Notes: generated from the letters alone by a model not told the origin. Positions 3,736 through 54,978 are shown, numbered from the stretch's first letter. The stretch: 64,000 nt of DNA from Negativicutes bacterium (GCA_028707635.1 JAQWAQ010000003.1:804-64803), one strand, 5' to 3'. A program made the numbers and translations.

Positions 3736-3819
3736 GCTGCTAACCTCCCGTCCATCTCCAAAACAAGTTTTTCGAACAAAACAAACTAACCTATTATATT
3801 TTCTACATACTATAGAAAA

Positions 3820-3844
3820 AATCCTGTCAAAAGATGACAGGATT
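3820..3844 (-). terminator. putative intrinsic terminator after pgi
   Basis: AATCCTGTCA-aaaga-TGACAGGATT stem with a T-run on the minus strand. Confidence 0.6.
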
Positions 3845-3868
3845 CTTATGGGAAAATAGACCTAACTT

Positions 3869-5323
3869 TCATCCCTTTAGTCCCTTCAACCGCGGCCCCA
3901 TCAGCCGCTTATACCCCTCAACCCCCGGCTGATCAAACGCATCCACATTAGCCAACTCACCCTCATAGGCCACTGATAAGCACAGCAAATACAAAAGCTC
4001 ACCCAACTGATACGCCGTAAGCTTCGGCAAAACAAAGGTAGCATTAAACCGGTTGTCACGTGCCAGCGCCTCTGCATTGGCCTCCCGCGCAATATCAAGG
4101 GCCTGACTTAAACGAATTCCCGCGATCTCCGCCAACTTTGCTGCCACAGGAAACACATTCGGAATCACCGGATCAGAGTCCCACTCAGCCACCTTAACAA
4201 ACTGTACCACCTTATCCCGTTTGCCATCCTGATGCTGCTGGGTCTGGGCATGCATATCCGTAGTGCCCACCGCTACCACCGGCGTCCGGCCATAGAAAAC
4301 TTCCTGACCATCACGATCAGTCCGTTTGCCCAGCGACTCGGCCAGCAGCTGCACATACCATTCGGCTACTGACTTGAGGTTATCACCATATGGCATAAAA
4401 ACTTCAATATCCCGTCCATACTTTTCCGCGGCCAAGTATTTAAGCGCCGCATTCAGCAGGGCCGGATTTCGCCAAAATTCATCAGTCTGACAGGCCTCAT
4501 CCATGGCCTTTGCCCCGGCCAGAAAGCCATCAATATCAAACCCAATACACGCCGCTGTGACAAGTCCGACCTCACAGAAAATACTAAACCGTCCGCCGAC
4601 ACCGTCCGGCACACCGAACGTTGGCCACGCCATTTCACCCGCCAACTTTTTAAGCAGCGTTGCATTTTCACCTTCCAATGGATCAGTCACCGCCACAACC
4701 TCAACCTCAATCAAATCACTCTGCTTTTTCAGAGCATCATAAGCCACCATGAAATTAGACATGGTATCAAGCGTCGAACCCGATTTTGAAATAACAATGA
4801 GACAAATTTTACATTTACTCTCAGCTTCCCTCACTAAATGCTCCACCAACTCACTCGTCCGCCGCGGGTCAATATTATTGCCGCTAAAATACAACTTGGG
4901 GTAGCCGTCGCGCTCCGCAGGCGTTTTAGCATTCCAAAACTCACCGCACTGCACATCAAACAGCACCTTGTTTCCAAGATACGACCCACCAATCCCAAAT
5001 GACACCACAGTGTCCACACGATAACGCAGTGATTGGCCAAACTCCTTCAGGCGCTCAATCGACCCCAGCGAATTTAAATGTCCCTCTTCCACATAGGGAA
5101 GTTCGGTAAACAGCACCTTTTCCGGCTCCCCGTCCTTCGAAAAATGCCCCCGTACCTCACCTGTCGCCCGCATATGCTGAACAGCCTGATGCGCTTTTAC
5201 CAGCTGCTCACCCAAAGCATCAATATCGGTCTGGTTTACCTTGCCCTCGCCATACAAGTTTGTGTAATCAAACACAAAGCCTGACTGAAGCTTTAATGAA
5301 GTACCCGTAATATTTCTCCCCAT
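3869..5323 (-). CDS. pgi: glucose-6-phosphate isomerase
   Basis: GIGGSYLG, VISKSGSTLDT, VGGRFS, QLLAESLGK, FDQPGVE; ATG 5323 chosen over TTG 5338. Confidence 0.93.
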   Translation of the reverse strand: MGRNITGTSLKLQSGFVFDYTNLYGEGKVNQTDIDALGEQLVKAHQAVQHMRATGEVRGHFSKDGEPEKVLFTELPYVEEGHLNSLGSIERLKEFGQSLRYRVDTVVSFGIGGSYLGNKVLFDVQCGEFWNAKTPAERDGYPKLYFSGNNIDPRRTSELVEHLVREAESKCKICLIVISKSGSTLDTMSNFMVAYDALKKQSDLIEVEVVAVTDPLEGENATLLKKLAGEMAWPTFGVPDGVGGRFSIFCEVGLVTAACIGFDIDGFLAGAKAMDEACQTDEFWRNPALLNAALKYLAAEKYGRDIEVFMPYGDNLKSVAEWYVQLLAESLGKRTDRDGQEVFYGRTPVVAVGTTDMHAQTQQHQDGKRDKVVQFVKVAEWDSDPVIPNVFPVAAKLAEIAGIRLSQALDIAREANAEALARDNRFNATFVLPKLTAYQLGELLYLLCLSVAYEGELANVDAFDQPGVEGYKRLMGPRLKGLKG

Positions 5324-5406
5324 GCCCGACACCCCCAAGATATAGTAAACTACCCTTCATGCACTTTACTACCCTATGCGGACTTTATAAAAACATGCTT
5401 CTTTTT

Positions 5407-6378
5407 TTAGTTTTTCCGATGCCACGCCCACGCACTGCTGATAATCTGATTAAGCTGACTCCACACCGGTTTCCACCCTAGTTCAGCCTTAATTCGCGCC
5501 GAGGAAGCAACCAGCACAGCCGGATCGCCCGCCCGTCGCTCATCCTCACGGACTGCGAAATCAACGCCTGTAATCTCTTTCGCCTTATCAATCACTTCGC
5601 GCACACTAAACCCGGCTTGCGAACCAAGATTATAAACTCTGCACTCTCCACCATGAACCAAATGCTTCAAGGCCAACACATGAGCAGCCGCTAAATCGGT
5701 CACATGAATATAATCGCGGATGCAGGTCCCATCCGGAGTAGAGTAGTCGGTTCCATAAATGCTGATGGCCTCACGCTGTCCTAACGCTGTCTTTAAAATA
5801 AGCGGCACAAGATGCGTCTCGGGATTATGGTCCTCGCCTGTCAGACCCTCTATATGCGCCCCGGCTGCATTAAAATAGCGCAACGACACATACTTCAACC
5901 CATATGCCATGGCAAAATCGGCCAGTATGCCTTCAATGATCAGCTTGGTCCGCCCGTAGACATTTGTCGGGCAAGTCGGCATATCCTCGGTAATCGGCCA
6001 CTGCTCCGGTTCTCCATAAACAGCGGCAGTCGATGAAAATACGATTTTATTTACAGCGCACTCCCGCATTGTATCCAAAAGCGCCAGCGTTGCCACAACA
6101 TTATTATGATAATACTTTGCCGGCTGTTGCATCGACTCACCCACTAAGCTGTCCGCAGCAAAATGAACAACCGTCTCAATCTCATTCTCCTTAAGCACCT
6201 GTGCTAAAAGTTCCTGATCACGAATATCGCCCTTAACAAACTTCACTCCCGCCGGTACTGCAGACTTATGGCCTTTTGACAAATTATCATAAACAACTAC
6301 ATGATGATCTTCCCGAACAAGCTCATGCACCGTATGAGACCCAATATACCCCGCACCACCTGTAACCAGTACTCTCAT
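5407..6378 (-). CDS. galE: UDP-glucose 4-epimerase
   Basis: GGAGYIGSH, FSSTAAVYG, YGRTK, LRYFNAAGA, RDYIHV. Confidence 0.95.
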   Translation of the reverse strand: MRVLVTGGAGYIGSHTVHELVREDHHVVVYDNLSKGHKSAVPAGVKFVKGDIRDQELLAQVLKENEIETVVHFAADSLVGESMQQPAKYYHNNVVATLALLDTMRECAVNKIVFSSTAAVYGEPEQWPITEDMPTCPTNVYGRTKLIIEGILADFAMAYGLKYVSLRYFNAAGAHIEGLTGEDHNPETHLVPLILKTALGQREAISIYGTDYSTPDGTCIRDYIHVTDLAAAHVLALKHLVHGGECRVYNLGSQAGFSVREVIDKAKEITGVDFAVREDERRAGDPAVLVASSARIKAELGWKPVWSQLNQIISSAWAWHRKN

Positions 6379-6408
6379 TATTAAGCCTCCAAAATTTAGT
6401 GTTTTAAT

Positions 6409-7359
6409 TTATTTATCTATTTGATTTTCTCCCTCTTCTTCCTGAAGCGTCGCTGCCAAATCGCTATTAAAAATCGGCCTCATAGTCTTGACTAAATACC
6501 GAAGAAATTTCTCCCTAAGCTCCGGCCGTTTCAGCGCATACTCAATAGTCGCTTCAAGATACCCCTGCTTATCGCCGATATCATAGCGGCGTCCCTCAAA
6601 ATTATAGGCATACACCGACCGACTCTCGGCTAGCCGCCGCAACGCATCGGTAAGCTGAATCTCACCCCCGCGGCCTGGTTTGGTAGTCTCCAGCAACTCA
6701 AATATTTCCGGCTCAATGATGTACCGGCCTAATACCGCCAATTGAGATGGAGCCTCTTCCACGGACGGTTTCTCAATCAAATCGATGGCTTTCCAAAGAT
6801 TATCCTTCACCCGAGTCGGCTGTACAATGCCATAACTGGATACTTTATCGCGCGGAACTTCCTGCACGCCAAGAACGCTTCCACCATAATCTTCATAAAC
6901 ATCCATCAGCTGCTTCAGACAAGGCACACTGGCATCCACGATATCATCGCCCAACAGAACCGCAAAAGGTTCGTTGCCCACAAACTGTTTGGCGCACAGC
7001 ACGGCATGCCCCAGCCCCTTGGCCTCTTTCTGCCGGACATAATGAATGGTCACATCAGCGATTTCCTGAACCAATCCCAGTAAGTCATATTTCCCCTGTT
7101 CCTTAAGCGTCAATTCAAGTTCAACAGCCCTGTCAAAATGGTCCTCAATCGCCCGCTTATTGCGCCCGGTAATAATAAGAATTTCCTCTATTCCAGACTG
7201 AATGGCCTCTTCAATAATAAACTGAATGGCCGGCTTATCAACAATCGGCAGCATTTCCTTCGGCTGCGCCTTAGTCGCAGGTAAAAACCGCGTCCCCAGC
7301 CCCGCCGCCGGAATAACAGCCTTACGAATTTTAGCTCTATTTTGCACTTTTATCGTCAT
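6409..7359 (-). CDS. galU: UTP--glucose-1-phosphate uridylyltransferase
   Basis: [35 protein letters not shown]. Confidence 0.95.
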
Positions 7360-7406
7360 CTCCCTATCATCTATACAATATAATACGCAGTGTTATATAA
7401 TTACGT

Positions 7407-7435
7407 AATTCAATATATCAAAACTTTTCTCCTGC
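7407..7435 (-). promoter_or_regulatory. sigma-H-type promoter upstream of galU
   Basis: GCAGGA-N18-GAATT. Confidence 0.55.
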
Positions 7436-7480
7436 GTATATACCCTGTAAAATATTACTTCCCATTCCCCTCTAAAATCA

Positions 7481-7506
7481 AAATCCCCCACTGAAGTGAG
7501 GGATTT
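7481..7506 (-). terminator. putative intrinsic terminator after manB
   Basis: AAATCCCCCAC-tgaa-GTGAGGGATTT imperfect stem plus T-run. Confidence 0.55.
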
Positions 7507-7512
7507 CTATTC

Positions 7513-8871
7513 CTAGCGATTGATCTCCGCAAGCAGTTCCTCTGTCTTGCGTTTAAGCAGCTCGCTATCACATTTAGTCTCAATATTCAACCGCAGCACA
7601 GGCTCGGTATTTGAGCTCCGCACATTAAACCGCCAATCATCGAACTCAACACTTAGCCCATCAGTCCGGTCAATACTCGCGCCTTGGGTGAACTTCTCCT
7701 CAATACGGGCGATCACATCCCGGGCATCTTTCACCGTGGAATTAATCTCCCCGCTAATTGGATAACAAGCCACTCTTTCTTCCATGAGCACCGAAAGCGG
7801 CTTCCCTTCAAGACACATAATCTCAACCAGCAGCAGCCACGGAATCATGCCGCTGTCACAATAAGAGAAATCACGGAAATAATGATGCGCCGACATCTCG
7901 CCGCCGTATACCGCATCCTCCTGCCGCATCCGTTCCTTAATAAATGCATGACCGCTCTTGCACTGAACAGGCACCCCGCCCGCCTTTTCAACTAGCTCAA
8001 TCGTATTCCAAGTCAGCCGCGGATCATGAATAATCTTGGCCCCTGGGAATTTACGCAAGAAAGCCTGCGCCAGGAAGCCGACAATATAATAACCCTCAAT
8101 AAATTCGCCTTTTTCATCAAAGAAGAAACATCTGTCAAAGTCGCCATCCCAAGCGATCCCCACGTCAGCCCCTGTCTCGCGCACCACCTTAGCCGTTGCA
8201 TCACGGTTTTCCAGCAAAAGCGGATTGGGTATCCCATGCGGAAAACTACCGTCAGGCTCATGATTTACTTTAATAAACTCAAACGGAAGGAACTTCTCCA
8301 ACACATCAATCACCGGTCCGGCGCAGCCGTTTCCCGCATTAACCACAATCTTTAACGGTTTAAGCGCTGAAACATCAACGTAGGTCAGCAAATGCTGTAT
8401 ATAGTCCGCCATAATATCCTGTTCAGTGACTGTTCCAACAAGCTCGCCATCAGCCACAGGCGCAAATTCACCACTAATCGCTAATTCCTCAATTTCCTTC
8501 AGCCCGCTGTCGCTGCTGATTGGGCGCGATTCTTCGCGAACCAGTTTCATCCCATTATAATCCTGGGGATTGTGGCTAGCAGTAATCATAATCCCGCCAT
8601 CCAGCTTCAAATGCGCTGTAGCAAAATAAATCATTTCAGTGCCGCAGATTCCGATATCGACGACATCACAGCCGACTTCAGTCAACCCTTTCACCAGCGC
8701 TGCCCGGATCGCCGTCCCCGTAAGCCGGATATCCCGCCCGACAGCCACCTTTTTTGCTTTAAAAATATCCACATACGCCCGCCCGATACGGTAAGCCAAT
8801 TCCTCATTGAGTTCATCAGGCACCCGCCCGCGAATATCATAAGCCTTAAATGCCGTCCGTTTTAATTCCAT
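7513..8871 (-). CDS. manB: phosphomannomutase/phosphoglucomutase
   Basis: ITASHNP (phosphoserine), DGDFDR, GEMSAH; ATG 8871 with RBS GAGGGG. Confidence 0.92.
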
Positions 8872-8970
8872 CTTCTGCACCCCTCATCATCATAATTACA
8901 TATGGCGTTCTCTTTTTACCCGCTTTATTAAGCTATTCCATCTCCAGAAAGAGCATGACTAATATTTACT

Positions 8971-8999
8971 AAATTCTTTTCATTAATTATTATTCCTGC
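8971..8999 (-). promoter_or_regulatory. sigma-H-type promoter upstream of manB
   Basis: GCAGGA-N17-GAATTT. Confidence 0.55.
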
Positions 9000-9105: not shown

Positions 9106-9111
9106 AAATTA

Positions 9112-12379: not shown

Positions 12380-12716
12380 TTACTTTCTCCCGATAGAGTA
12401 ATATTCTACTCCCGCCGCTTTCATTGCTTCAGTTCCATAGAATATTCCTTCCATCATAAACCAAAGGAGTTCGCATAAACTTCTTATAAGTTTCTGGTTT
12501 CACAGCTTTTATCTCGCCCCACTCGGTAAAGATAAAGCAAACATTAGCGCCTTCTAAAGCTTCCTTCACGTTATCAACGTACTTTATGCTTCCCCTGTCG
12601 TTTTTACCTTCAGGATATTTTTTCTTGGAGGCATCTGTACCGACAGGGTCATGTGCCCAAATATCCGCCCCCTACGCCAATAATAAAGGTGCGTTTTCAA
12701 GTAATGCGCTTCGCAA
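12380..12716 (-). pseudogene. ugd: C-terminal remnant of UDP-glucose 6-dehydrogenase
   Basis: Hand translation: LLA*GADIWAHDPVG...EALEGANVCFIFTEWGEIK...PLVYDGRNI / AGVEYYSIGRK*; internal stop and frameshift; the 5' part is missing next to the IS. Confidence 0.75.
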
Positions 12717-12837
12717 GAATTACTTCTTGTGCGAAGTGGCAATGATCTCCGATTTAATGGATTGATAGTGGCTATTCTTGGGTGTAAGCGGTCAAGTACT
12801 TTTTTAAAAAAACGGCCATTAATTTTGACCTCGTCCA

Positions 12838-13270
12838 ATATAACTAAGTCGGCATTTAATAATTGTTTGACTCGCCGTTGGCTGCGTTGGAGCATAGTCT
12901 GTGTCTTTAATATATTTAGCAATTCAAGATGGCTTTTACCGATACCAGGCGGCCCTAAATAAATAATGTTATACGCATCTTTAAGCCAGTGCATTTCCTT
13001 TAGTGTATCTATCTGGCATTTAGAAACAGACGTCTGGAAGCCAAAATCGAAGCTTTCAAGAAGTCCCTGATAAGGGAACTTGGCTTGTTTCATGCGTATA
13101 TCCAGCGATTTCTTCTGCCTAGCTGTTACTTCGGTTTCCAGACATTACTTAAGAAATTCGGGATATGCCGGTTGCTCCTTAACTGCTTGATTAAATAATT
13201 GTGGTAAAGCCTTTTTAAATTCGCCCATATGTAGTTCGGTCAACATCGCAGCAAATTCGGTTCCTGTAAA
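12838..13270 (-). pseudogene. istB: IS21 helper ATPase IstB fragment
   Basis: AKFPY..LESFDFGFQ, LGPPGIGKSH fused by deletion to ADLVILDE; in-frame stop upstream. Confidence 0.8.
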
Positions 13271-13274: not shown

Positions 13275-14210
13275 CTCAAGTAGTTTTATTGAAGGTATCG
13301 GCTGAAGGTGCTGTTTTTCTAGGGCATGCACTTTCGCCGGTACTTTTTTTGTTGTGCCATGCTCTTTGGCATTACCTGTTCGATCCAGCCAGTCAAGCTG
13401 CGCCTGATTTCAATCTTGCAACGTAGTGAACAGTCGGTGTTTGGCGAAATTGTATTTTACGTACTTTACAGTGGACTCAACCTTGCCTTTAGACCCAGGG
13501 TCACCCTTACGACATAGGTACACTTTAAAGCGCAAAGTTTGTTTAAGTCTTTCAAATTCTTCAGTATATAAAATATCACCGTGATTTTCGCTAACAGCTA
13601 CAAGTTTATCCTGATCGAATACTAATTCTTGTGGCATTCCGCAGATATATTCAAAACAACGTCGCAGCATGGCGGTTAATCGGGCTGTGGTAAAGGGTTG
13701 ATCACTCCATTCGGCATATTTAAATCGTGAATGGGCTAGAACCGGCGCCATACAGTATACTTTTCGCTTGCGACCACCGGAAGTAGGAACGGTAATCTCA
13801 CCGAAGTCAACCTTCATTTGCTGTCCGGAAGACAGCTCATCAACAGCTTCACATTGGTGGTATGCAACGCTTTTTTGTAAGCCATGAGCTTTTCTTAATG
13901 CCGCTACATACCTGCGTACAGTACGTTCACGAAAGCAACTAAATGGATAAAGTTCTTTTAACCAGTCATGAATTTGAGCCGAACTTAAATCAGGATACTG
14001 TTTTAACCGAGCCAGAATCTGTGCTTGATATTTGTCTAGCTTGCTTGATCGGCGCTAGTTTTTTGCCTCATCTCCGCAAACCCTTGCGGATCAATATCCC
14101 AGTATTTGATAATCGTCTTGATATCCAAATCCTAGATTCCGTGCAGTTTGTGATTTGTTCAATCCTTCAGATTTTAATTACTGGATTTCACTATACATTG
14201 GCCACCTCAA
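13275..14210 (-). pseudogene. istA: IS21 transposase IstA fragment
   Basis: HTH N-terminus with a stop and frameshifts; QMKVDFGE, ELVFDQDK, DPGSKGKVESTVKYVK. Confidence 0.85.
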
Positions 14211-14483: not shown

Positions 14484-15518
14484 TCATAGTTCATCAAATG
14501 ATGTCAAAAAGTATGAACGGCGATCATCTTGATTTAACAGCAAAAATTCTGCAAATATATTGCTGAATTTATCTGCTCCAATATTGTTAAGATGGCTTTT
14601 ATCTCGAAAATACGAATTTGGAAATTTAGCTATATCAGGTTTTAGCAAGCAAAAATCATAATATTCTAGGCCTTCTTCCTCCGCGAGCCGGGCAAAGAAA
14701 TCATGTGCTTGCTGATAATTTCCAGTGTCGGCAAGTAATGACTTTGGCATGGGGGCAGTAACCAAGACAAGCTCTATATTCTCCTGCTTACAGATTTCTA
14801 TAATTTTTTGTAAATAAAAAAAACCTTCCTCGTTTTTATTCTTGTCGTCCCAGACCGATAAAGGTCTAGCCATTTCTGCGTCCCCGGCCTGATAAGAAGA
14901 AACAACAAAGCCTTTTATGCCATAGGTAAAATAGCCTGATTGAAATGGAAGATATCTTCGATAAGTGGCGTTCATCTTTTCCGCTAGAGTATTCTTCATA
15001 TATCTAAAGTTAAATTTGCTTCTGTATCTGTAACTGTGAAAAAAAACATCGGCGTAATTGTCCGGCTTAAATGCATGAAAAAAATACTCCATTTTATTTT
15101 GCGAAGGAGCAAAGTAATCATAAATAACCAAGCTTGTCATAACATGGTTTTGACTCAATTCGGACGCAAGAAATACAGGATATGTAATCTCATATATTAT
15201 CTGTTTCGGTTTATAAATACTTAACAACTCTTTGATGATATAGTAGCTGTCTTGAGGAGTTTGATTTGAAGAGCCCAAATTAAAAGAATTGATGCCCAAC
15301 TTACTGTCAAATATTGCGGGATCAAATGATTGGTAAGTATGGGAAGCGCCGACGAAAGCAATATCTATGTTTTTTTCCTGTGCGTAAAAATCGTGCATTG
15401 TCCATCGGGTAAAACCATATGCCGGAATCAGCAAAAACGCCAGGATTCTTTCGATAATGAAAAAACCGACTAAAAAGACAGTCAGGCGAATAAAAAATTT
15501 TCTATTAGAACTGTGCAT
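14484..15518 (-). CDS. membrane-anchored SGNH/DltD-like acyltransferase
   Basis: N-terminal TM; FVGASH (catalytic Ser), NLGSSNQ, FRDKSHLN (D-x-x-H); overlaps the MBOAT gene. Confidence 0.75.
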   Translation of the reverse strand: MHSSNRKFFIRLTVFLVGFFIIERILAFLLIPAYGFTRWTMHDFYAQEKNIDIAFVGASHTYQSFDPAIFDSKLGINSFNLGSSNQTPQDSYYIIKELLSIYKPKQIIYEITYPVFLASELSQNHVMTSLVIYDYFAPSQNKMEYFFHAFKPDNYADVFFHSYRYRSKFNFRYMKNTLAEKMNATYRRYLPFQSGYFTYGIKGFVVSSYQAGDAEMARPLSVWDDKNKNEEGFFYLQKIIEICKQENIELVLVTAPMPKSLLADTGNYQQAHDFFARLAEEEGLEYYDFCLLKPDIAKFPNSYFRDKSHLNNIGADKFSNIFAEFLLLNQDDRRSYFLTSFDEL

Positions 15519-16932
15519 ACAGAAACCCCTTTACAATATCAGAACCCTGGACTTGCAGCAACATAATTACGAATATAGCCGCATAGCATACACCGCATCG
15601 TACGATAAATGGAAGATAAGCATACTTCTGGAAATATTTTTCCCGGTCAAGTTCAATGCCGTGTGAGAACAGAGTAATCGCCATACCAACGGCCAAAAGA
15701 AGCAAAAACTTTCCACCCAGTCCAAACGCCAACGACCAGGTGGTAGGGTAAAAAACATATTTGCAGATAATAACCCATGCATCGTGAGCGCTTCCGGCTC
15801 TTATAAAAATAATTAATATGGTGTTAATAAGCATCGTCAACGAGATGCCTAAAACTGTAAACACAACTGGCGGCAATTCCTTTTTTAACTTTTTACGTTT
15901 CTTCGCAAAAAGAGCCTCGGCCGCGACAACAGATCCCATAAAGAGACCCCATAGGAAAGCCGCGACTGAAACCTTGTGCCACAAGCCGCTAAGAACTAAC
16001 GTAATGATTGCCGCAAAAACCGAGGCATAGATGCCATATGCTCGCCAAGCAAACTGGAGAGGAGCAAAGACATAGTCGGAGAGCCAACTTGATAAGCTCA
16101 TATGCCAAGCTCTCCAATACTCTGAAATCGTTTGCTGGAAGAAAGGCGCCTTGAAATTGTGCTTAACTTTATAACCTAAAATCTCACATATACCGACCGA
16201 AATATCCGTATAGGCCGAGAAGTCAAGATACAGTTGAATTAGATATGCAAATGCAACAATCAACCAGCTTAATCCATTGCTCACACTCATATCAGTAAAA
16301 ATTGGAGTAATAGCAAGAGCAAGTCTGTCGGCGATTACTAATTTTTTGAAATATCCCCACAAAATCAACAAAAAACCGTTGCGGAAATTATCCGGGGAAA
16401 ACTGTTTCTCCTGCCTGATTTGCGGTAAAAATTCAATTGCCCGCGTTATAGGACCTGCTACAATTTCGGAAAATAAACAAAGATGCAACAACAAATAGTC
16501 ATAGCGTTTCTCCGGCTCTATTCGTTCAAAATATACGTCAATCAGATAACTCAGGCTCTTAAACATATAATAAGAAAAACCTAGAGGAAAAACAATTGAT
16601 GCGCTAATGCCAACCGGAGAAACCAATGCGTTTAAAAATTGATCGGGAAGCCTTGTATATTTAAGCAAAAAAAATCCAGCCATGATAATAGCTATACAGC
16701 TTATCATAAATACAAACTGCTTCTGCTTGTGTTGTTTTATCATAAGCCTTGCCGACAGATAAACAAATAGCGCGAACAGAACCATAAACAAAGGTGCCCA
16801 TTTCGCCCAGCAATAGTAAAAGAACAGACTTGCCAGAAGCAGTACAAAGGATTTAATTTTCTGAGGGACACAAAAGTATATGCTGAAAACCACAATTAAA
16901 AATAAAATAAAAGAGAATGACGTAAAGGACAT
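15505..16932 (-). CDS. MBOAT family O-acyltransferase (AlgI/DltB/PatA-like)
   Basis: PLGFSYYMFK, GPITRA, YLDFSAYTDI, WRAWHMSLSSWL, LSGLWH; C-terminal FLYAQF. Confidence 0.93.
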   Translation of the reverse strand: MSFTSFSFILFLIVVFSIYFCVPQKIKSFVLLLASLFFYYCWAKWAPLFMVLFALFVYLSARLMIKQHKQKQFVFMISCIAIIMAGFFLLKYTRLPDQFLNALVSPVGISASIVFPLGFSYYMFKSLSYLIDVYFERIEPEKRYDYLLLHLCLFSEIVAGPITRAIEFLPQIRQEKQFSPDNFRNGFLLILWGYFKKLVIADRLALAITPIFTDMSVSNGLSWLIVAFAYLIQLYLDFSAYTDISVGICEILGYKVKHNFKAPFFQQTISEYWRAWHMSLSSWLSDYVFAPLQFAWRAYGIYASVFAAIITLVLSGLWHKVSVAAFLWGLFMGSVVAAEALFAKKRKKLKKELPPVVFTVLGISLTMLINTILIIFIRAGSAHDAWVIICKYVFYPTTWSLAFGLGGKFLLLLAVGMAITLFSHGIELDREKYFQKYAYLPFIVRCGVCYAAIFVIMLLQVQGSDIVKGFLYAQF

Positions 16933-20483: not shown

Positions 20484-20513
20484 TTATTCTACACTATGGT
20501 GGATTATTCCTGT
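20484..20513 (-). promoter_or_regulatory. sigma-H-type promoter upstream of the fkbH cassette
   Basis: ACAGGA-N18-GAATAA. Confidence 0.55.
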
Positions 20514-36143: not shown

Positions 36144-36173
36144 TTATTCTCCAACAAAAAACAAATCTCCTGT
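36144..36173 (-). promoter_or_regulatory. sigma-H-type promoter upstream of the O-antigen operon
   Basis: ACAGGA-N18-GAATAA; an extended -10 TGtTATAAT also lies at 36181-36189. Confidence 0.55.
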
Positions 36174-46771: not shown

Positions 46772-48199
46772 TTACCATTTAACAGTGTCTATACTAACTT
46801 TTAATTGGTCTCGCTTCTCTCTGTAGGTAATTTCCAAATCCCAACAGTGTAGGTTGCGACGCCATGTATAGTCTTGGTCGTAAACAAGTTTGTTTTCCAG
46901 GTCATAGACTTGTGAAAAGACAATCGTATTTTGATGGTCAAATTTATATGATACACCATTTGTCCACTTCTTATTTACGTCTTCTTCATCAAAGTCAAAA
47001 ACATTGGATGTCTTTTGCGTATAACCATATCCAGTCCATGTAGTAAGCTTAGGTGACCAAGTCTTAGTAAGGCGAGCACCAGCACTCCACGAGTCCGCAC
47101 TATAGTCATTATAACTTTCGCGAAGATGCCGTAAACCAAAGCCCACATTAAGTTTTAAAGTATCACTCAGATCAATCGTATCATGACGGAAATTCAGTCG
47201 ATAGTCTTGATGCCAACTGGTCTTTCTAGCATCAGTCCACTTACCATAAATACCCATAAATGTATAGGTAATAGGCGAATTGCCAACCCGTTGTCGATGA
47301 AGATCAAACCTAAATTCAGGTTCCTTTTTGATCCACTCATCATCGCTATCCTGATAATTTCCGTAATTAATTCCTACGGAATACATTTTTTCTCTATCAA
47401 CAAGACCATACGCTGGTTTAAATCCAGCCGATGAAAAATAAGTTAAATCTGCATAGGCACTTGTATTGCCAGCAACAGGGACCTCCAGATATTGACTGAT
47501 ATAAGCACCATCACCACTATCATAACCTATTCGGGGAAACTCGCTTTGAGCCCCTTCTTTCAATGACTTTTGATATTTGCCCATAGAATAAATAACCGTA
47601 TTCTTAATCCAAAACTTCGCATTGTAAGCAATCATCTTATCACCAGGCCATATTTCAACCTTATCTGCGCTAACATGATAGTCAGGTACTTCGGCTGGGC
47701 AGACCGTCATAGTACCGTCGTTAATGATGATTTCACTGGTAGACACCATTTCAATATTACGACCGGTAACAAACTGTCTGTTGACCTTTCCTGAAGCCTG
47801 CTGCAAAGTACCGGTATTGTCTTTATAGTCATATTTCAAACCGCCGGAACCAATAAGATTAACACCTGGTTGTGTCATTGTTGCTTCGCTGTCTGTCCAA
47901 ACAAGACTTTCCTTAGTATTGCCATTGAGAAGATCTGTCGTTAATTTAACTTCATTTTGAGTGACTCGTACATTGCCTTTTACAAAGACTTGTCCCGTCA
48001 AATCGCTGAAGGAAAGTTCGTCCCCTTCAATTGTAATGGGTGCTTGCGGTTTTGCCGGTGTAGCGGATTCTACCGATGACGCGACTTCCTTTTTATTGTC
48101 AGTGGTCGCTTCTGTATCGGCTGCATAACCAGGCACGGCTGCACCAAAAACCATGATCAGTGCTAATAGGCCAAAGACAGCCTTTTTTGTGTCAAACAT
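46772..48199 (-). CDS. lptD: LPS-assembly outer-membrane protein LptD-like
   Basis: Signal peptide, OstA-like beta-jellyroll N-terminus, aromatic beta-strand C-terminus ending in W; position in the lpt cluster. Confidence 0.7.
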   Translation of the reverse strand: MFDTKKAVFGLLALIMVFGAAVPGYAADTEATTDNKKEVASSVESATPAKPQAPITIEGDELSFSDLTGQVFVKGNVRVTQNEVKLTTDLLNGNTKESLVWTDSEATMTQPGVNLIGSGGLKYDYKDNTGTLQQASGKVNRQFVTGRNIEMVSTSEIIINDGTMTVCPAEVPDYHVSADKVEIWPGDKMIAYNAKFWIKNTVIYSMGKYQKSLKEGAQSEFPRIGYDSGDGAYISQYLEVPVAGNTSAYADLTYFSSAGFKPAYGLVDREKMYSVGINYGNYQDSDDEWIKKEPEFRFDLHRQRVGNSPITYTFMGIYGKWTDARKTSWHQDYRLNFRHDTIDLSDTLKLNVGFGLRHLRESYNDYSADSWSAGARLTKTWSPKLTTWTGYGYTQKTSNVFDFDEEDVNKKWTNGVSYKFDHQNTIVFSQVYDLENKLVYDQDYTWRRNLHCWDLEITYREKRDQLKVSIDTVKW

Positions 48200-48279: not shown

Positions 48280-48308
48280 TTATTCTACAGAACCTGCACT
48301 TTTCCTGC
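48280..48308 (-). promoter_or_regulatory. sigma-H-type promoter upstream of lptD
   Basis: GCAGGA-N17-GAATAA. Confidence 0.6.
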
Positions 48309-48332
48309 AATTTTTTATCCGGGAAAATGTAG

Positions 48333-48357
48333 AAACGCCACCGATTAGGTGGCGTTT
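48333..48357. terminator. putative terminator
   Basis: AAACGCCACC-gatta-GGTGGCGTTT. Confidence 0.65.
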
Positions 48358-49326: not shown

Positions 49327-49431
49327 GATAGACCCTCCCTTTTTTGCCTTTACACACATATTTCGCGAAAATGAAGAAATATCCTGCCAAAAGAATTGTA
49401 AAAGGCGACCATAACATATGGCCGCCTAAAA

Positions 49432-49866
49432 TTAAATTTTTACATCAATTTCCGCTGATACTCCCACACCTTGAACGCGGGAAAAATTGACAGGATTCTT
49501 GCTGTCGATCGGAATGAGCGCTTTGACCCGGAACTGCTTGCCATTGAAGTTTCCTTCAATCTGAAGCACTGACTCGGTTCGATCCACTAAATCTTGTGGA
49601 CCGGTAACCTGCGCAGCGCCTATGTAACCACCACTGCCGAGGGTGATAATAGGAACGACTTTGGTTGCATAATCAGTCCCTGCTCCATGCTTGAATGTCA
49701 GCGTGTTAATAAAATTATTTAACGGCCCGGAGAACTTGTCAACAACAAAGCCAATCCCGCCGACTTTTAGGATATCACCTAAGCTGAATGCCTGGGTCGC
49801 TGGAACGGCGGCAACGGATAGAAAACAAAGTACCAGAAGACCGGCGATAAACTTCTTCTTCATCAA
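49432..49866 (-). CDS. exported hypothetical protein (144 aa)
   Basis: RBS AGGAGG; AxA signal peptide. Confidence 0.8.
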   Translation of the reverse strand: MMKKKFIAGLLVLCFLSVAAVPATQAFSLGDILKVGGIGFVVDKFSGPLNNFINTLTFKHGAGTDYATKVVPIITLGSGGYIGAAQVTGPQDLVDRTESVLQIEGNFNGKQFRVKALIPIDSKNPVNFSRVQGVGVSAEIDVKI

Positions 49867-49896
49867 AACATCCTCCTTTTATATGACTCTATAGTC

Positions 49897-49925
49897 AATT
49901 CGTTGCAAACTATAGCAATTCCTGC
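49897..49925 (-). promoter_or_regulatory. sigma-H-type promoter
   Basis: GCAGGA-N18-GAATT. Confidence 0.55.
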
Positions 49926-49962: not shown

Positions 49963-49999
49963 AGAAATCCCACCAAGACGATGTCTTGGTGGGATTTCT
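49963..49999 (-). terminator. intrinsic terminator after the porin gene
   Basis: 17-bp perfect stem AGAAATCCCACCAAGAC / GTCTTGGTGGGATTTCT plus T-run. Confidence 0.85.
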
Positions 50000-50008
50000 A
50001 TACTTCTG

Positions 50009-50971
50009 TTAGAATTTATAAGTCACTGTTGTACGGAAAGAATTGTAATTGTCGGTGCCATGGACTTCTTCCATGTCTTTATAGAATACATTAAAGGTAG
50101 TATCCTGGGTCAGTTTGTGGTTGTAGCTGTAATACATCCCTTTACCTGATGGATCAAAGTCTGTCCAGCCTCCCATATCACCATTGGCTTCCACTTTGCT
50201 GTACATGGCTGAGAATGAATTTTTAGCATCGAACGCATAGCTTGCACCCAAAACATATGCTTGATTGTTATCATCAGCATTCGATTTCGTATACTCAGCG
50301 AAGTAGCCTACTTTGCCTTGATTAAAGGCAGCATCTAAGGCCCAGTGATTAGTTGTGTCGCCGCCGTCTACATCATAGCGGGCAAGAGTTCCACCGACAG
50401 TCCAGTTTTTAGCAGGATTATAGGAACCATGTACACTATACACTTTATTATCAGGGCCGCCTACATTGTAATTATTATAGCCGTTTTCCACACCAGCGAT
50501 AAAGTTTAAATTAGTTGCACCAAGTTTAGTAGAAGCACTTACACCATCAATGGAACCCATGTTGCTGCCGATATAACCTTCAGTGCTGTACAGCAGTGCT
50601 GTCGCACCAATAGTTGCGCCTTGACGACCAAGGTTGTATGTCACATTATCGCCTTTTAAAATAACACCAAAGCGGTCAATGGTCGAGATGGAATCACGAG
50701 TTGCAGAAGCTCTAAAATCAGCACTGCTTAAGCCGGCATGCAATCTTTGTGTTGCAAAGCGGGCATAAAGATCAGTATTCGCATCCAGAGCCAGTTTGGC
50801 ATTTAGCAAGAAGGTGCTTCTAGCGCTTTCCGATGTACCGTTAGCATCCGAATCATTCCAACGGTAGTGCACTTGTGCTGAACCGTCGAATTCAACAGGA
50901 GCGGCCATTACTACACCCATCGACATAGCCATTGCTGCAGCCACAGCTGCTGCGAGAAGTCTTTTTTTCAT
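50009..50971 (-). CDS. outer-membrane porin, OmpM-barrel-like, lacking an SLH domain
   Basis: Signal peptide followed directly by amphipathic strands (FDGSAQVHYRW); C-terminal TVTYKF. Confidence 0.75.
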   Translation of the reverse strand: MKKRLLAAAVAAAMAMSMGVVMAAPVEFDGSAQVHYRWNDSDANGTSESARSTFLLNAKLALDANTDLYARFATQRLHAGLSSADFRASATRDSISTIDRFGVILKGDNVTYNLGRQGATIGATALLYSTEGYIGSNMGSIDGVSASTKLGATNLNFIAGVENGYNNYNVGGPDNKVYSVHGSYNPAKNWTVGGTLARYDVDGGDTTNHWALDAAFNQGKVGYFAEYTKSNADDNNQAYVLGASYAFDAKNSFSAMYSKVEANGDMGGWTDFDPSGKGMYYSYNHKLTQDTTFNVFYKDMEEVHGTDNYNSFRTTVTYKF

Positions 50972-51106
50972 TAAGTTTTCCCCCTAAATATTTTTTATTG
51001 CACGCCATCCTACGGGGGCAAACTACTTTACAAAGAGTAAGTGTCCACGTTTCCTTAGTCTTTTGTGAGTAGTCAATCGCCCGCAGATTACAATACAACG
51101 AATAAC

Positions 51107-51135
51107 ATATTCGACGATATCATGCTAATTCCTTC
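51107..51135 (-). promoter_or_regulatory. sigma-H-type promoter
   Basis: GAAGGA-N17-GAATAT (GTCGAAT). Confidence 0.6.
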
Positions 51136-51175
51136 TGTGTGATTAACATTTTTTAAATAATATTGTTATGCAAAA

Positions 51176-51209
51176 AAAGAAGCTCACATCACATGATGTG
51201 AGCTTCTTT
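51176..51209 (-). terminator. intrinsic terminator after ompM
   Basis: AAAGAAGCTCACATC / GATGTGAGCTTCTTT plus T-run. Confidence 0.85.
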
Positions 51210-51220
51210 GCTCGTTCTTT

Positions 51221-52510
51221 TTAGAAGTAGAAGTTAACTTGTACGCGTGTACGTTCGTTATCTGTATCTACCTTGCTGTCAGTGTATTCGCTATTGAAAG
51301 TTTGGAAACCTTCCATAACGATGTTTTTAGCAAGAGTATAACTTACACCCAAGCCAAAGCCTTCAACACCTTCGTTGAGGTTAGCAGCAGTTCTATCAGT
51401 TTGTGCTAGTATCATGTTTGAACCAGTCAATGCAACAGGAGTTGCGTAACTTTCCCAGTTGAAGTACTCAACAAATGTGCCCCAGCTTTGCGGTACTGAT
51501 TTGTTAGCACCTTTATAGCTGATTCTAGCAACATAAGCCTCAGGATCACCAGCAACATCACCATTTTGGAAATAGTCACCAGTTAACGCCCAATCTTTAG
51601 CAAACTTTGTGGTAAAGCCAGCACCGATTATGGAATAATCCACGTTGCGGATGCCTTTAGTTTCAAAGTAAGTTGCATTAATGTTTGTAGCTTTGCTAGT
51701 GTTATATTTTGCTTCAGCATAAACTGCATCTTTTACACCTTGAGTTGCAGCTTCAGTAGCAGTTGCAGCTTTGTCAGGGTTATAAGCAGCAAAATCAGCA
51801 TAACCAGCAGTTACTTTTAATGCATTACCAGCAGTAAATTTAACACCGTCAACCATACCAGTACCAGTAGTATCTACAAGGTAGCCAGTTTGGCCAAGGA
51901 ATTCAGCATAACGACCAATAGTAGAAGTTGCACCAGTGTTGAATACATTTTTAGTAGTTAAAGATGCAATAGCAACTTTTGCATCGTCACTGCCAGTTGT
52001 ACCTTGTTCATTGTGATTCATAGCGAAACGGCCATTGAATGTAGTGTTTTCATTCACAGCAGCAGTCATGTTGATACGGAAACGTTCGTAGAATTTGCTG
52101 TCATCAGCAGCTTCGTCATCATTCCAACGAAGACGAACGTCGCCAGTGAATTTAATATTGGATTGGTTAGCTTCCAATTTAGCTACGCGAACGCCAAGGT
52201 TTTGAAGTTCGGAGCTGAATTCAACAGCTAATTTGTCGACAAGAGCTTTTGTTTCAGCATCAGCTTTGTCGGATTTAACCATTGCTTTTGCAACGATTTG
52301 AGCCATTTCGTAACGAGTCATGTTTTTGTCGCCACGATATGTGCCGTCATTATAGCCGTCAACAATGCCAGCGTTAGCTAATTTAGCTACGGCATCATAG
52401 GCCCAGTGTTTTGCAGGAACATCAACGAATGGATTAGCAGCGGCAAATGCTGTACCGGCGATGCCAAGTACGAACACAAGCGCTAAAGTAATGATTAGAC
52501 TCTTTTTCAT
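51221..52510 (-). CDS. ompM: SLH-domain outer-membrane porin OmpM
   Basis: NPFVDVPAKHWAYDAV..L...GIVDGY, MTRYEMAQIVAKAM, coiled-coil stalk, barrel, C-terminal F. Confidence 0.9.
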   Translation of the reverse strand: MKKSLIITLALVFVLGIAGTAFAAANPFVDVPAKHWAYDAVAKLANAGIVDGYNDGTYRGDKNMTRYEMAQIVAKAMVKSDKADAETKALVDKLAVEFSSELQNLGVRVAKLEANQSNIKFTGDVRLRWNDDEAADDSKFYERFRINMTAAVNENTTFNGRFAMNHNEQGTTGSDDAKVAIASLTTKNVFNTGATSTIGRYAEFLGQTGYLVDTTGTGMVDGVKFTAGNALKVTAGYADFAAYNPDKAATATEAATQGVKDAVYAEAKYNTSKATNINATYFETKGIRNVDYSIIGAGFTTKFAKDWALTGDYFQNGDVAGDPEAYVARISYKGANKSVPQSWGTFVEYFNWESYATPVALTGSNMILAQTDRTAANLNEGVEGFGLGVSYTLAKNIVMEGFQTFNSEYTDSKVDTDNERTRVQVNFYF

Positions 52511-52760
52511 GTGTTTGCCTCCTTAGGTTTTCTTGTTTTTTAATTTGATGAGCCTGGCCTAAGAAGGGAACTGTTATTGAGTTTCCATGTTGCCTCAACT
52601 ATTCCCTTATCAGAGAGCTCATATCTATACACCTACTTCAAAAACTGCTCTCGGGGTACCTAAGGTACACCTCCTTCCTTCCCCTTTCAGTTCTCTTCAG
52701 TGAAAGATCAATTTAAGAGTGACTGGAATCTTATAGCCAATCATTTCCTCACGATGATAT

Positions 52761-52789
52761 ATATTCTAGATAAGGATATGTATTCCTGC
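52761..52789 (-). promoter_or_regulatory. sigma-H-type promoter of ompM
   Basis: GCAGGA-N17-GAATAT. Confidence 0.6.
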
Positions 52790-52805
52790 TTAATTTTAAA
52801 AATAA

Positions 52806-53210
52806 TTATGTGAAATACCGCTCGGCGAGAATTACGGCTACGTAATCGTCGACAGGTACCGGGGGCACTTGCATGGTGATCGGTATGAAGCGTTTTAAGC
52901 CGCGCGGAGGATTTTCCTGCCAATAGCGGACACGAGCGGCATCGGTTGAGCGATGCTCGTCCACTAGTTTTACGACTAATTGCTGATTGTTGATGCTGAT
53001 CTTCTCAAGGATTTTTTTGTTCTCCCGGCTGGTTGTACGGTTGCCAAGGATCACGGTGAGTGTACTGTATTCTTGCGCCAGCTTGGTGATAATTTCGGTA
53101 AGCCTCGCTGTTTCAACCACGCTTTTGTATAAGACTTCTTGGGTCTGCCGGACTACGGCTACCCCGCATTTTTCGCGGCCGGGGTCGACAGCGATTACCA
53201 TATCTTCCAC
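52806..53210 (-). CDS. YqgF/RuvX RNase H-fold nuclease-like protein
   Basis: IAVDPGREKCGVAV, LVDEHRST, VDDYVAVILAE. Confidence 0.82.
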   Translation of the reverse strand: MEDMVIAVDPGREKCGVAVVRQTQEVLYKSVVETARLTEIITKLAQEYSTLTVILGNRTTSRENKKILEKISINNQQLVVKLVDEHRSTDAARVRYWQENPPRGLKRFIPITMQVPPVPVDDYVAVILAERYFT

Positions 53211-53235
53211 GGTACAACCTCCGTTCCTGAATAGT

Positions 53236-53263
53236 ATATTCCATAGTAGGTATTATATTCCTC
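53236..53263 (-). promoter_or_regulatory. sigma-H-type promoter
   Basis: GAGGA-N17-GAATAT. Confidence 0.45.
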
Positions 53264-53271
53264 CTAAAAAG

Positions 53272-53303
53272 CAAAAAAAATAAGGCGCCCATGATGGGCG
53301 CCT
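53272..53303 (-). terminator. intrinsic terminator after the second ompM
   Basis: AGGCGCCCAT / ATGGGCGCCT stem plus T-run. Confidence 0.75.
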
Positions 53304-53317
53304 GGGATAGAATCTTA

Positions 53318-54472
53318 TTAGAATTTAATGTTAACGGCTGCACTGGTGCGGGCACCAAGCTCAGTTCCGTTTTGATCTTCAAAGTCTTGGTATTTAACAA
53401 CAAGCTTGGTGTTTTTGTCAAGACCTTTGTCGTATTGGAATTCCATACCTTTGAAGCCGTTTGCACTGTTAAGGGCTTCTACGTCGTTGCTAAGAGCACC
53501 GAAACCAGTGAATGCTGCGCTGTCTACATCTCTGTAGGTAGCTGACAAGCCGATTTTGTCGAATTTAACGCCATAAGCTTTTGCAGTAGCATTAGCATCG
53601 TTGTTGTCGAAGTATTCAGCTTTTGCAGTTACGTTGTCAGCAAGTTTGAAGGCAGTAGTCAAACCATAGATTTCTTGGTCGTTAGAGTCGTTTTTGTAGT
53701 AATCAGCACCGAAGTCTGCGCCAAGAGCGTTGAAGCCATATTCAGCAGCATAGACGCGGTTTTTGCCGTCTTCACTGTCGACAGTATTACCAGCAACAAG
53801 TTTCAGGTTACCAGCTTTAGTAGCAATTGCATTCATTTGAGTATCAAACAGGTAGCCGCCACCAAGCAGAACGTCTTGACGACCAATTGTGTTAGTCAGG
53901 CCAAGCGCATTGAAGGTTACATTAGCAGTATCAAGTTTGAATTTGCCACTTGTGCTGCCATCATATGCGATGTTGCCGCTGTTAATACGAGCATTGAATT
54001 TCAGGTTATCGCTTACGTTACCGTCGAAAGTTAAACGAGCACGGAAGTCAGTGTTGTCGTGAGCTTTACCAGCTTCATTTTCAGCGGAGAAATAACGAAC
54101 ACGAGCGTCACCGGAGATTTTAACCATGTTATCTACTTGGTCTTGAAGACCTGCAACTTTAACGCCGAGATTGTTCAGCTCTGTGCTGAATTCTTGTGCA
54201 AGTTGGTCAACAGCTGCTTGTTGTTCAGCGTTCAGGCTTTTGTTCATTGCTTTTGCTACAATTTGAGCCATTTCATAACGAGTCATAGTTTTGTCACCTT
54301 TATAGGTGCCATCATCATAACCGTCAACGATACCGGCTTGAGCAAGTTTGTTTACTGAATCATAAGCCCAGTGTTGTGCAGGAACATCGGAGAACGGATT
54401 AGCGAAGGCAGGTACCGCGAAGGCTACTGTTAATGCGGCTGCCACAGCTGCTTTTAAAAGTCTTTTTTTCAC
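53318..54472 (-). CDS. ompM: SLH-domain outer-membrane porin OmpM paralog
   Basis: NPFSDVPAQHWAYDSV, MTRYEMAQIVAKAM, barrel, C-terminal F; GTG start with RBS GGGGG. Confidence 0.9.
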   Translation of the reverse strand: MKKRLLKAAVAAALTVAFAVPAFANPFSDVPAQHWAYDSVNKLAQAGIVDGYDDGTYKGDKTMTRYEMAQIVAKAMNKSLNAEQQAAVDQLAQEFSTELNNLGVKVAGLQDQVDNMVKISGDARVRYFSAENEAGKAHDNTDFRARLTFDGNVSDNLKFNARINSGNIAYDGSTSGKFKLDTANVTFNALGLTNTIGRQDVLLGGGYLFDTQMNAIATKAGNLKLVAGNTVDSEDGKNRVYAAEYGFNALGADFGADYYKNDSNDQEIYGLTTAFKLADNVTAKAEYFDNNDANATAKAYGVKFDKIGLSATYRDVDSAAFTGFGALSNDVEALNSANGFKGMEFQYDKGLDKNTKLVVKYQDFEDQNGTELGARTSAAVNIKF

Positions 54473-54641
54473 TTTGAAATCCCCCTAAGTTTTTTTGTTC
54501 GCGGGTGTTGCCACCAGGCACTTCAGCTTGGTTCCATAGGGGGCATGATTGTTATGAGTATCCACGTTTCCTCAAACTTCATTGCCGCCAACGGAGTTTC
54601 TGCGTTATGCCACCTGCCGCTTTTACAGGTTCTAGTTTACA

Positions 54642-54670
54642 TAATTCGACGCCAGTGTTGTGTTTCCTGC
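54642..54670 (-). promoter_or_regulatory. sigma-H-type promoter
   Basis: GCAGGA-N17-GAATTA (GTCGAAT). Confidence 0.6.
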
Positions 54671-54978
54671 TAGAATAAGTGGTGTAAATATTGGTAATTG
54701 TTAGTTTTGACTAATCAGTCAAAACGCATCGAAAAAATAAGATCTGTCAATAAATAGTTTACATATTTAAATTTACAAATGACGGTTTTTTAGTTGGTTT
54801 TTATAATAAACTCTTAATGTATATAACTTGACTATATGGTCATTTGTATTTAAAAAAATATTTTATTAACATAATCTTATACTTTAAATTTCGACATTTT
54901 GAAGTAAAGTCCTTTTTTTGAATGGCTGTTTTGGGGTGGTAAATTATGGGAGGATTAAGTTTACATAAATATTATAAA

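Follow-up and report, generated by a model that had tools for sequence, protein, structure and literature searches.

Sigma-H-type promoters upstream of outer-membrane and lipopolysaccharide-sugar genes in a spore-forming Negativicutes bacterium

Gene cluster and promoter motif

The stretch of DNA analysed here (the window) comprises 64,000 nucleotides from a Negativicutes bacterium (GCA_028707635.1, JAQWAQ010000003.1:804-64803) and holds a Negativicutes-type lipopolysaccharide (LPS)/outer-membrane (OM) gene cluster, identified by Pfam, in which a bipartite motif, AGGA-N17/18-GAAT, precedes ten genes. Nearly all genes of the window lie on the minus strand. From high to low coordinates, the cluster begins on this strand with kdsA, kdsD, kdsC, a gene for an LpxL-type acyltransferase, lptC, lptA, lptB, lptF/G and a DUF3084 gene. 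These are followed by two SLH-domain OmpM genes, yqgF, a Porin_4 gene, two small hypothetical genes and an LptD_N-like gene leading a glycosyltransferase-rich operon, then by an O-antigen ligase-like gene (Wzy_C), wzz and a long sugar operon, and finally by genes for FkbH, ManC, PGM/PMM, a GalU-like protein, an epimerase, PGI and a LuxR-type response regulator. The Pfam results agree with the gene names given in a first-pass annotation of the window (NTP-transferase/GalU-like, PGM/PMM, FkbH, Wzz, LptD_N-like, Porin_4, two SLH-OmpM, YqgF). The nearest relatives of the LptB protein belong to Dendrosporobacter sp. (84%), Sporomusa rhizae (79%) and Pelosinus (78%), and the organism is therefore placed, by its sequence, among the spore-forming Negativicutes (diderm Firmicutes).

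All ten exact motifs listed in that annotation were found at their places, on the minus (sense) strand, and all of them are intergenic. In the intergenic DNA (10,018 nt scored, of which ~200 nt are the 5' end of kdsA, with no effect on the counts), the ten sense matches compare with 0.63 +/- 0.79 expected from 2000 dinucleotide shuffles, none of which contained more than four, and the opposite strand of the same DNA had no match to AGGA-N17/18-GAAT. The 54 kb of coding sequence (CDS) contained one sense and one antisense match, plus one at a gene overlap; for the whole window, 13 matches were counted against 4.87 +/- 2.1 in shuffles. An equal frequency on the antisense strand or in coding DNA, which had been named in advance as an outcome that would speak against promoters, was thus not observed.

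In the half of the cluster that encodes outer-membrane proteins (OMPs), the site at 54642-54670 (core 54644-68; GCAGGAAAC-N11-GTCGAATTA, then a conserved TATGTAAAC; this and all following sites are on the minus strand) lies 171 nt before SLH-OmpM gene 2 (ompM2, 53318-54472). The intrinsic terminator of ompM2 (53283-53303) is directly upstream of the site at 53236-53264 (core 53238-62; GGAGGAATA-N11-ATGGAATAT), 27 nt before yqgF (52806-53210), and the next site, at 52761-52789 (core 52763-87; GCAGGAATA-N11-CTAGAATAT), stands 252 nt before SLH-OmpM gene 1 (ompM1, 51221-52510). The terminator of ompM1 (51176-51209) adjoins the site at 51107-51135 (core 51109-33; GAAGGAATT-N11-GTCGAATAT), 137 nt before the Porin_4 gene (50009-50971), whose own terminator, with a 17-bp stem (49963-49999), is directly upstream of the site at 49896-49925 (core 49898-923; GCAGGAATT-N12-AACGAATTG), 31 nt before the 144-aa gene (49432-49866). 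Finally, the terminator of a hypothetical gene of ~312 aa (hyp312; terminator at 48333-48357) is followed directly by the site at 48280-48308 (core 48282-306; GCAGGAAAA-N11-GTAGAATAA), which lies 82 nt before the LptD-like gene (46772-48199), the head of a ~7-gene operon. Strong terminators thus adjoin four of the motif sites, and the OMP region is therefore described as a string of terminator-promoter-gene modules.

Four further sites precede the sugar genes. The site at 36144-36173 (core 36146-71; ACAGGAGAT-N12-GGAGAATAA) is 69 nt before wzz (34841-36076), which heads a ~8-gene operon, and that at 20484-20513 (core 20486-511; ACAGGAATA-N12-GTAGAATAA) is 155 nt before the FkbH-led operon (18534-20330 and downstream genes). 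Those at 8971-8999 (core 8973-97; GCAGGAATA-N11-AAAGAATTT) and 7406-7435 (core 7408-33; GCAGGAGAA-N12-ATTGAATTA) are located 92 nt before the PGM/PMM gene (7513-8880) and 48 nt before the GalU-like gene (6409-7359), respectively. The distance from GAAT to the start codon consequently ranges from 27 nt (yqgF) to 252 nt (ompM1).

Three variants with GAAA in place of GAAT, which the first-pass annotation had also listed, exist as written. They are weaker, with position weight matrix (PWM) scores of 13.9, 11.2 and 10.3, a range shared with matches in CDS, and only one of them is independently supported. This one (49359-49387, core 49361-85; GCAGGATAT-N11-CGCGAAATA; its score is among these three) precedes hyp312 (48391-c.49324) and is probably a real promoter, because the orthologous position is occupied by exact GAAT sites in eight of nine relatives. 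The variant at 3798-3827 (ACAGGATTT-N12-GTAGAAAAT, PWM 13.9), 64 nt before the LuxR/DegU-type response regulator gene (3064-3735), is a plausible promoter. The third (54887-54915; AAAGGACTT-N11-GTCGAAATT, PWM 10.3), 416 nt before ompM2, is weak and may possibly be the decayed remnant of a distal promoter module, of the kind repeated in tandem in relatives (see below).

The spacer between DUF3084 and ompM2 (54473-55430) is unusually long (958 nt). It contains the proximal sigma-H-type promoter, the weak distal GAAA variant and two sigma-A-like matches (54998-54971 and 54888-54860), an arrangement which suggests that several promoters serve ompM2.

The first-pass annotation stated that the motif precedes most LPS and OM transcription units. 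Counted by genes this is defensible, as ~27 of 50 are covered; counted by units it is borderline, since the exact motif heads 10 of ~22-27 candidate minus-strand units. In the window, the exact motif is missing before kdsDC, lpxL-lptCA, lptB-lptFG-DUF3084, the Wzy_C gene and several sugar genes; the upstream region of the Wzy_C gene carries TTGACT-17-TATCAT instead. The upstream region of kdsA falls beyond the window. A truncation of kdsA was considered and dismissed, as the gene is intact and continues past the window edge.

The sigma-H consensus of B. subtilis and C. difficile is given as RNAGGAWWW-N11/12-RNNGAATWW (Britton 2002 and Saujet 2011, as cited in PMC12456013), and the resemblance already remarked on in the annotation extends to flanking positions that were not searched for. 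In the -35 element, a purine is present at -2 of AGGA in all ten window sites (G in eight), C immediately before AGGA in eight, and A/T predominates at the three positions that follow AGGA; [GA]CAGGA as such is found at eight of the ten. In the -10 element, nine of the ten sites have a purine at -3 of GAAT, and the two positions after GAAT are A/T in ten and nine sites, respectively. Among 114 distinct cross-species sites, G at -2 of AGGA and R at -3 of GAAT were found in 89% and 81%, and the resulting consensus is (A/g)GCAGGA(a/t)(a/t)(a/t) ... (G/a)(T)(A/c)GAAT(a/t)(a/t)(a/t). An AGGA-GAAT spacing of 17 nt occurs in 6/10 window sites and in 83% of the 114; the 17-18 nt range was imposed by the search pattern, and the preference for 17 nt is nonetheless sharp. 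An overlap of a Spo0A box with the -10 element was considered and dropped, TGTCGAA being present at 2 of the 114 sites as against 25 with TGTAGAA.

When the window was scanned with a PWM, the ten exact sites scored at least 18.4 and everything else at most 16.0, the matrix having been trained on the same ten sites that it separates. The best match after these (16385-16414, GCAGGAGAA...GGATAATTT, score 16.0) lies within a CDS (15505-16932), and the next (12401-12430, GAAGCAATG...GTAGAATAT, score 14.0) is intergenic, upstream of manC. The former may represent an internal promoter and the latter a degenerate one, or they may have arisen by chance.

Occurrence of the motif in related Negativicutes

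Syntenic loci were fetched around lptB and DUF3084 (best 80 matches per query), giving 171 related OM-cluster loci in total. The spore-forming set consisted of 15 loci (306 kb) from Sporomusa (seven), Pelosinus (four), Propionispora, Dendrosporobacter, Lucifera and Anaerospora, in which 79 sense and 7 antisense exact matches were counted. The exact motif was present upstream of ompM2 in 14 of the 15 loci, of 24 of 32 ompM1 paralogues, of both porin genes (2/2), of hyp312 in 8/9 and of the lptD-like gene in 7/7. For yqgF it was found in only 2/14 cases in the named genera, and also in several metagenome-assembled genomes (MAGs). None of ~92 kdsA/D/C, lpxL, lptC/A/B/FG and DUF3084 genes in the spore-forming relatives had the motif upstream.

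MAGs with 59-60% GC keep the motif before the same genes, and a site before the 144-aa gene is also found in the GC-rich MAGs L104, L105 and L117. In an alignment of 13 upstream regions of lptD-like genes, the -35 and -10 blocks are invariant, while the spacer and the sequence downstream are variable.

In several relatives the promoter module before the first ompM gene (ending GAATTATGTAAAC) is repeated in tandem two to four times, as in loci L133 (11357-11755, period 122 nt, 3.1 copies), L002 (13467/13615/13736) and L101 (14350/14490/14718), with no obvious terminators separating the copies. In a Halanaerobiales MAG (L018), three tandem matches precede the gene for an 809-aa SLH-domain OMP and one precedes that for a Wza-like exporter. 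This locus has seven matches as against 2.6 expected, six of them sense and intergenic (sites include 13738, 13884, 14007, 17986 and 19559 on the plus strand and 8860 on the minus strand); the total is not significant (4/100 shuffles reach seven). Use of the same motif in a second diderm lineage is suggestive only.

The non-sporulating set consisted of nine loci in which ompM genes lie at the syntenic place, eight from Veillonella and one from the Selenomonadaceae. The Veillonella ompM genes were found in the DUF3084-centred loci; loci centred on lptB, from Veillonella, Selenomonas, Megasphaera and others, have no OMP genes in their stretch downstream of yqgF. The motif occurs at only 1 of 17 ompM genes in the non-sporulating loci, where it coincides with the leader element described below, and these loci overall have four sense and three antisense matches. 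By consensus matching, every Veillonella ompM paralogue has instead a sigma-A-like signal, TTTACA-17-(TG)n-TATATT/TAATAT, mostly 108-182 nt upstream (L163 13716, 15580; L139 13462, 15050, 16883; L150 13715, 15580).

The Veillonella ompM genes are orthologous and occupy the syntenic place behind DUF3084-yqgF, and the same leader hairpin lies downstream of their promoters as in the window. Unlike the AGGA/GAAT sites of the window, these promoters combine a TTTACA -35 with an extended -10 (TGnTATATT/TAATAT). Thus, the promoter class at orthologous ompM genes appears to differ between spore-forming and non-sporulating Negativicutes, and in Veillonella it appears to have been swapped while the mRNA leader was retained.

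Mapped starts in Sporomusa and identity of the sigma factor

A 2025 multi-omics study of Sporomusa sphaeroides KIAC in mSystems reported 2,158 start sites from differential RNA sequencing, of which 322 (16.1% of detected motifs) followed a MEME motif with AGGA at -35, GAAT at -10 and a 17-18 nt spacer, assigned to SigH (PMC12456013). The KIAC genome has one SigH (Table S6, no paralogue), 75.1% identical to that of B. subtilis and 70.7% to that of C. difficile, and homologues of the classic SigH targets minC, ftsA, spoVS, spo0A, spoIIAA, dnaG and hpf carry the motif (PMC12456013). The KIAC SigH regulon is enriched in cell division, envelope, transcription, amino-acid and energy functions and spans many COG classes; the topic of the paper is acetogenesis genes, and the outer membrane is nowhere mentioned in it (PMC12456013).

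The KIAC cluster has the same gene order as the window (LptD, hypothetical, SLH, SLH, YqgF, SLH, DUF3084, LptFG, LptB) and the same motif, in a different genus. According to Data S2 of that study, in which the motif was searched for by the authors within 50 nt upstream of the starts of these orthologous genes, sigH-only starts precede KIAC18_001917, _001927 (a secondary start), _001942 (glycosyltransferase), _001943 (LptD) and _001944 (hypothetical) (PMC12456013). All five were seen only in H2/CO2, where sigH was reported to be up (PMC12456013). KIAC18_001946 has no sigma flag, and starts further upstream in the cluster (KIAC18_001962 onward) have sigA, sigF or sigE flags, or none (PMC12456013). 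Within the cluster, 6 of 13 sense starts have the sigH motif compared with 15% genome-wide (binomial P = 0.007; from Data S2, PMC12456013). The split matches that of the window, where the motif is found at OMP, LptD-like and LPS-sugar genes and not at core Kdo (3-deoxy-D-manno-octulosonic acid) and Lpt genes.

The assignment of the motif to the sigma-H type is well supported, because its flanking positions fit the consensus, it is conserved before orthologous genes, and mapped starts in KIAC lie behind the same motif. B. subtilis and C. difficile sigma-H promoters share this consensus with the window sites, unsearched positions included. What sets the window apart is its targets, the OMP, LptD-like and LPS/O-antigen genes, which monoderm Firmicutes lack. 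In addition, the SigH regulon in the KIAC lineage is several times larger than that of B. subtilis (48 genes, cited in PMC12456013) and was detected in growing cultures.

On this basis, the sites are probably genuine promoters of the SigH (Spo0H) holoenzyme, belonging to a broad regulon and not to a sigma factor dedicated to the OM. SigH holoenzyme would recognise a -35 element (A/G)CAGGA(A/T)(A/T) and a -10 element (G/A)N(A/C)GAAT(A/T)(A/T), with AGGA and GAAT 17-18 nt apart, and transcription would start a few bases downstream of the -10. The genes of the OMP half (ompM2, yqgF, ompM1, porin, the 144-aa gene and the 312-aa gene) would each form a separate unit of terminator, sigma-H-type promoter, often a long structured leader, and gene. 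One such promoter each would serve galU, the PGM gene and the operons headed by the LptD-like gene, wzz and FkbH, and the core Kdo, lipid A and LptABCFG genes would stay outside this promoter use. In spore-forming Negativicutes an expanded SigH regulon would then be active in growing cultures, where SigH is probably a second broadly used sigma factor. By analogy with KIAC, we infer that the genome from which the window derives encodes SigH, that transcription starts just downstream of GAAT and that expression depends on SigH.

Several observations weigh against this assignment. The 64-kb window contains no sigma gene, and a tblastn search with B. subtilis SigH (an approximate query) found no match in the window and the 171 loci. 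The KIAC assignment to SigH is itself based on the motif, without a sigH mutant or in vitro transcription (PMC12456013). In KIAC, the start of the SLH/OmpM gene KIAC18_001945, by far the top-expressed gene in that region of the expression table, has both sigA and sigH flags, and yqgF and the DUF3084-proximal ompM (_001948) have sigA flags (PMC12456013), unlike the window, which has the sigma-H-type motif at these genes. Some motif sites of the window may likewise be read by both sigma-A and sigma-H, because the site at 48282, before the LptD-like gene, doubles as a weak sigma-A promoter (TTGCAG-17-TAGAAT, at 48310). Furthermore, a 2026 study of Acetonema longum, comparing vegetative with sporulating cells, found no differential expression of the OM biogenesis genes and described OmpM1 as constitutive (PMC13018214). 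Such constant expression argues against a classic transition-phase switch; the tie of the OM genes to transition and sporulation is one that we infer from Bacillus by analogy.

The first-pass annotation had gone further and proposed sigma-H as the outer-membrane biogenesis sigma factor. Sigma-H-type promoters do stand before OMP, LptD-like and LPS-sugar units, and this local enrichment is real. A dedicated OM role is overstated, because the KIAC motif spans 322 of 2,158 starts with many functions, because the genes for Kdo, the lipid A late acyltransferase and LptABCFG are without it in the window and in the ~92 genes of relatives, and because some OMP genes also carry sigma-A-type signals. 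In a dedicated OM regulon the motif would head the OM machinery as a set and be largely restricted to it; neither pattern was found.

If another sigma factor with SigH-like specificity read the sites, for instance a SigH paralogue or an envelope-dedicated group 3 or 4 sigma, this would accommodate the large number of Sporomusa starts with the motif (322, against 48 genes in the B. subtilis regulon) and their activity in growing cells (PMC12456013). Such a factor is very unlikely, as Table S6 of the KIAC study lists a single SigH with no paralogue and the canonical SigH targets spo0A, spoIIAA and spoVS bear the same motif (PMC12456013). Moreover, no sigma-like open reading frame was found in the window or in the 171 related loci. 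The motif spacing was also unlike the E. coli consensus for sigma-E and other extracytoplasmic function (ECF) factors when compared by eye, and a resemblance to sigma-E/ECF promoters was dropped on this ground.

It is similarly improbable that the sites are housekeeping sigma-A promoters with an NAGAAT -10, in which AGGA is incidental or an activator site. TAGAAT, present at three sites, agrees with TATAAT in five of six positions, the site at 48282 has TTGCAG 17 nt upstream, and one KIAC ompM start is flagged for both sigA and sigH (PMC12456013). Against this, five of the ten -10 hexamers (TTGAAT, ACGAAT, TCGAAT twice and TGGAAT) have no A at position 2, most sites are without a usable -35, and the invariant AGGA, the fixed spacing and the conserved upstream G-C are not sigma-A traits. 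A search for TTGACA-N16-18-TATAAT, with A2 and T6 of the -10, gave no match of at least 9/12 that coincided with the motif sites, and in the porin, ompM1 and yqgF units there was no such match anywhere between terminator and start codon. Veillonella, which is without the motif, has clearly different sigma-A-like sites at the same genes.

That the motif is a transcription-factor site and not a promoter is less credible still. The cluster does contain a LuxR-type response regulator gene, and a few -10 regions resemble the Spo0A box (TGTCGAA), so that either protein could be proposed to bind; the fixed -35/-10 geometry, the strict sense orientation, the location between terminator and gene, and the mapped KIAC starts that follow the motif (PMC12456013) all speak for a promoter. 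An artefact of base composition, conceivable as the core specifies only eight bases and AT-rich spacers raise the background, is already refuted by the shuffles (ten matches against a maximum of four, and none on the opposite strand) and by conservation at orthologous positions in 60% GC genomes.

A known case of an alternative sigma factor in front of OM genes is sigma-E (RpoE) of Proteobacteria, an ECF factor with a different promoter that is released by OMP misfolding and whose regulon in E. coli includes lptD. Sigma-E drives assembly factors and lowers OMP synthesis via small RNAs. The window resembles this regulon in having promoters for an alternative sigma before OM-related genes, an lptD-like gene included; unlike it, the motif here heads structural OMP genes and is absent from core Lpt and Kdo genes. 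By this comparison, the sigma-E regulon would be at most a functional analogue, and no relative.

Literature searches found no link between SigH and the outer membrane in Negativicutes or Veillonella. As far as these searches show, three findings are undescribed: that sigma-H-type promoters follow each other densely along the structural OM genes, that this arrangement is conserved in spore-forming Negativicutes, and that sigma-A-type promoters apparently replace it in Veillonella. Already known are the sigma-H promoter class itself and the expanded SigH regulon in this lineage, published in 2025 (PMC12456013). Work on diderm Firmicutes has so far dealt with catalogues of OM genes and their expression through the sporulation cycle; in the A. 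longum study, sigma factors are unmentioned and the question of which sigma serves the OM genes is not raised (PMC13018214).

Only tentatively can it be suggested that sigma-H control of structural OM genes (OmpM tethers, porins, LptD-like, LPS sugars) is ancestral in spore-forming diderm Firmicutes; the Halanaerobiales locus is a hint that the second diderm lineage shares it. If true, envelope output would be wired into the Spo0A/SigH transition network, and the loss of sporulation, as in Veillonella and Selenomonadaceae, would have required these promoters to be rebuilt for sigma-A, with the mRNA leader unchanged. A concrete regulatory link would then be at hand for the debate on the connection between sporulation and the Firmicute outer membrane. 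The findings do not establish a new regulatory principle. In spore-forming Negativicutes, they place the envelope genes with the highest expression, and not the core LPS machinery, behind sigma-H-type promoters, and they yield cheap, testable predictions as well as promoter parts for organisms that are poorly tractable.

Leader hairpin and neighbouring features

A hairpin whose 12-nt loop is invariant, GAAAC(G/A)UGGA(C/U)A, occurs in the mRNA leaders of ompM and porin genes in all Negativicutes sampled, Veillonella included. The 14-nt core GGAAAC[AG]TGGA[CT]AC occurs 104 times in sense and never in antisense orientation in the window and the 171 loci. A relaxed core pattern gave 123 copies, and 95 of the 99 with a recognised start codon precede an OmpM or porin gene, at a median distance of 85 nt. 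The window copies are on the minus strand at 54571-54558 (ompM2), 51054-51041 (porin) and 52594-52581 (ompM1, with the variant loop GGCAACATGGAAAC).

The hairpin stem co-varies; at one pair, GC was found 26 times, AU six times and UA once, with none broken. The segment 3' of the hairpin is predicted to pair either with a purine-rich segment 5' of the hairpin or, alternatively, with the Shine-Dalgarno (SD) region, and the pairing CCCCCU/AGGGGG alternates with CUCCUUAG/CUAAGGAG. Mean z-scores against shuffles were -3.1 for the 5' arm/anti-SD pairing and -2.6 for the anti-SD/SD pairing. No matching family was found in Rfam 15. The hairpin looks like a conserved leader for translational control of OMP genes and is a candidate for such a function.

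Within the LPS sugar region, fragments of an IS21-type insertion element are located at 12584-13093 and 13410-13817 on the minus strand, with long non-coding flanks. They correspond to a piece of an IstB-like ATPase and a piece of an integrase core, the latter scoring under the Pfam cut-off.

Homologues of the DUF3084 protein (30-44% identity) are present in Atribacterota (loci L094-L098, Caldatribacterium/Atribacteria). In the one annotated locus among these (L097), the DUF3084 gene lies directly 3' of lptB-lptFG, as in Negativicutes. This suggests that, in Terrabacteria-type diderms, the ABC transporter for LPS export has DUF3084 as a conserved but uncharacterised partner.

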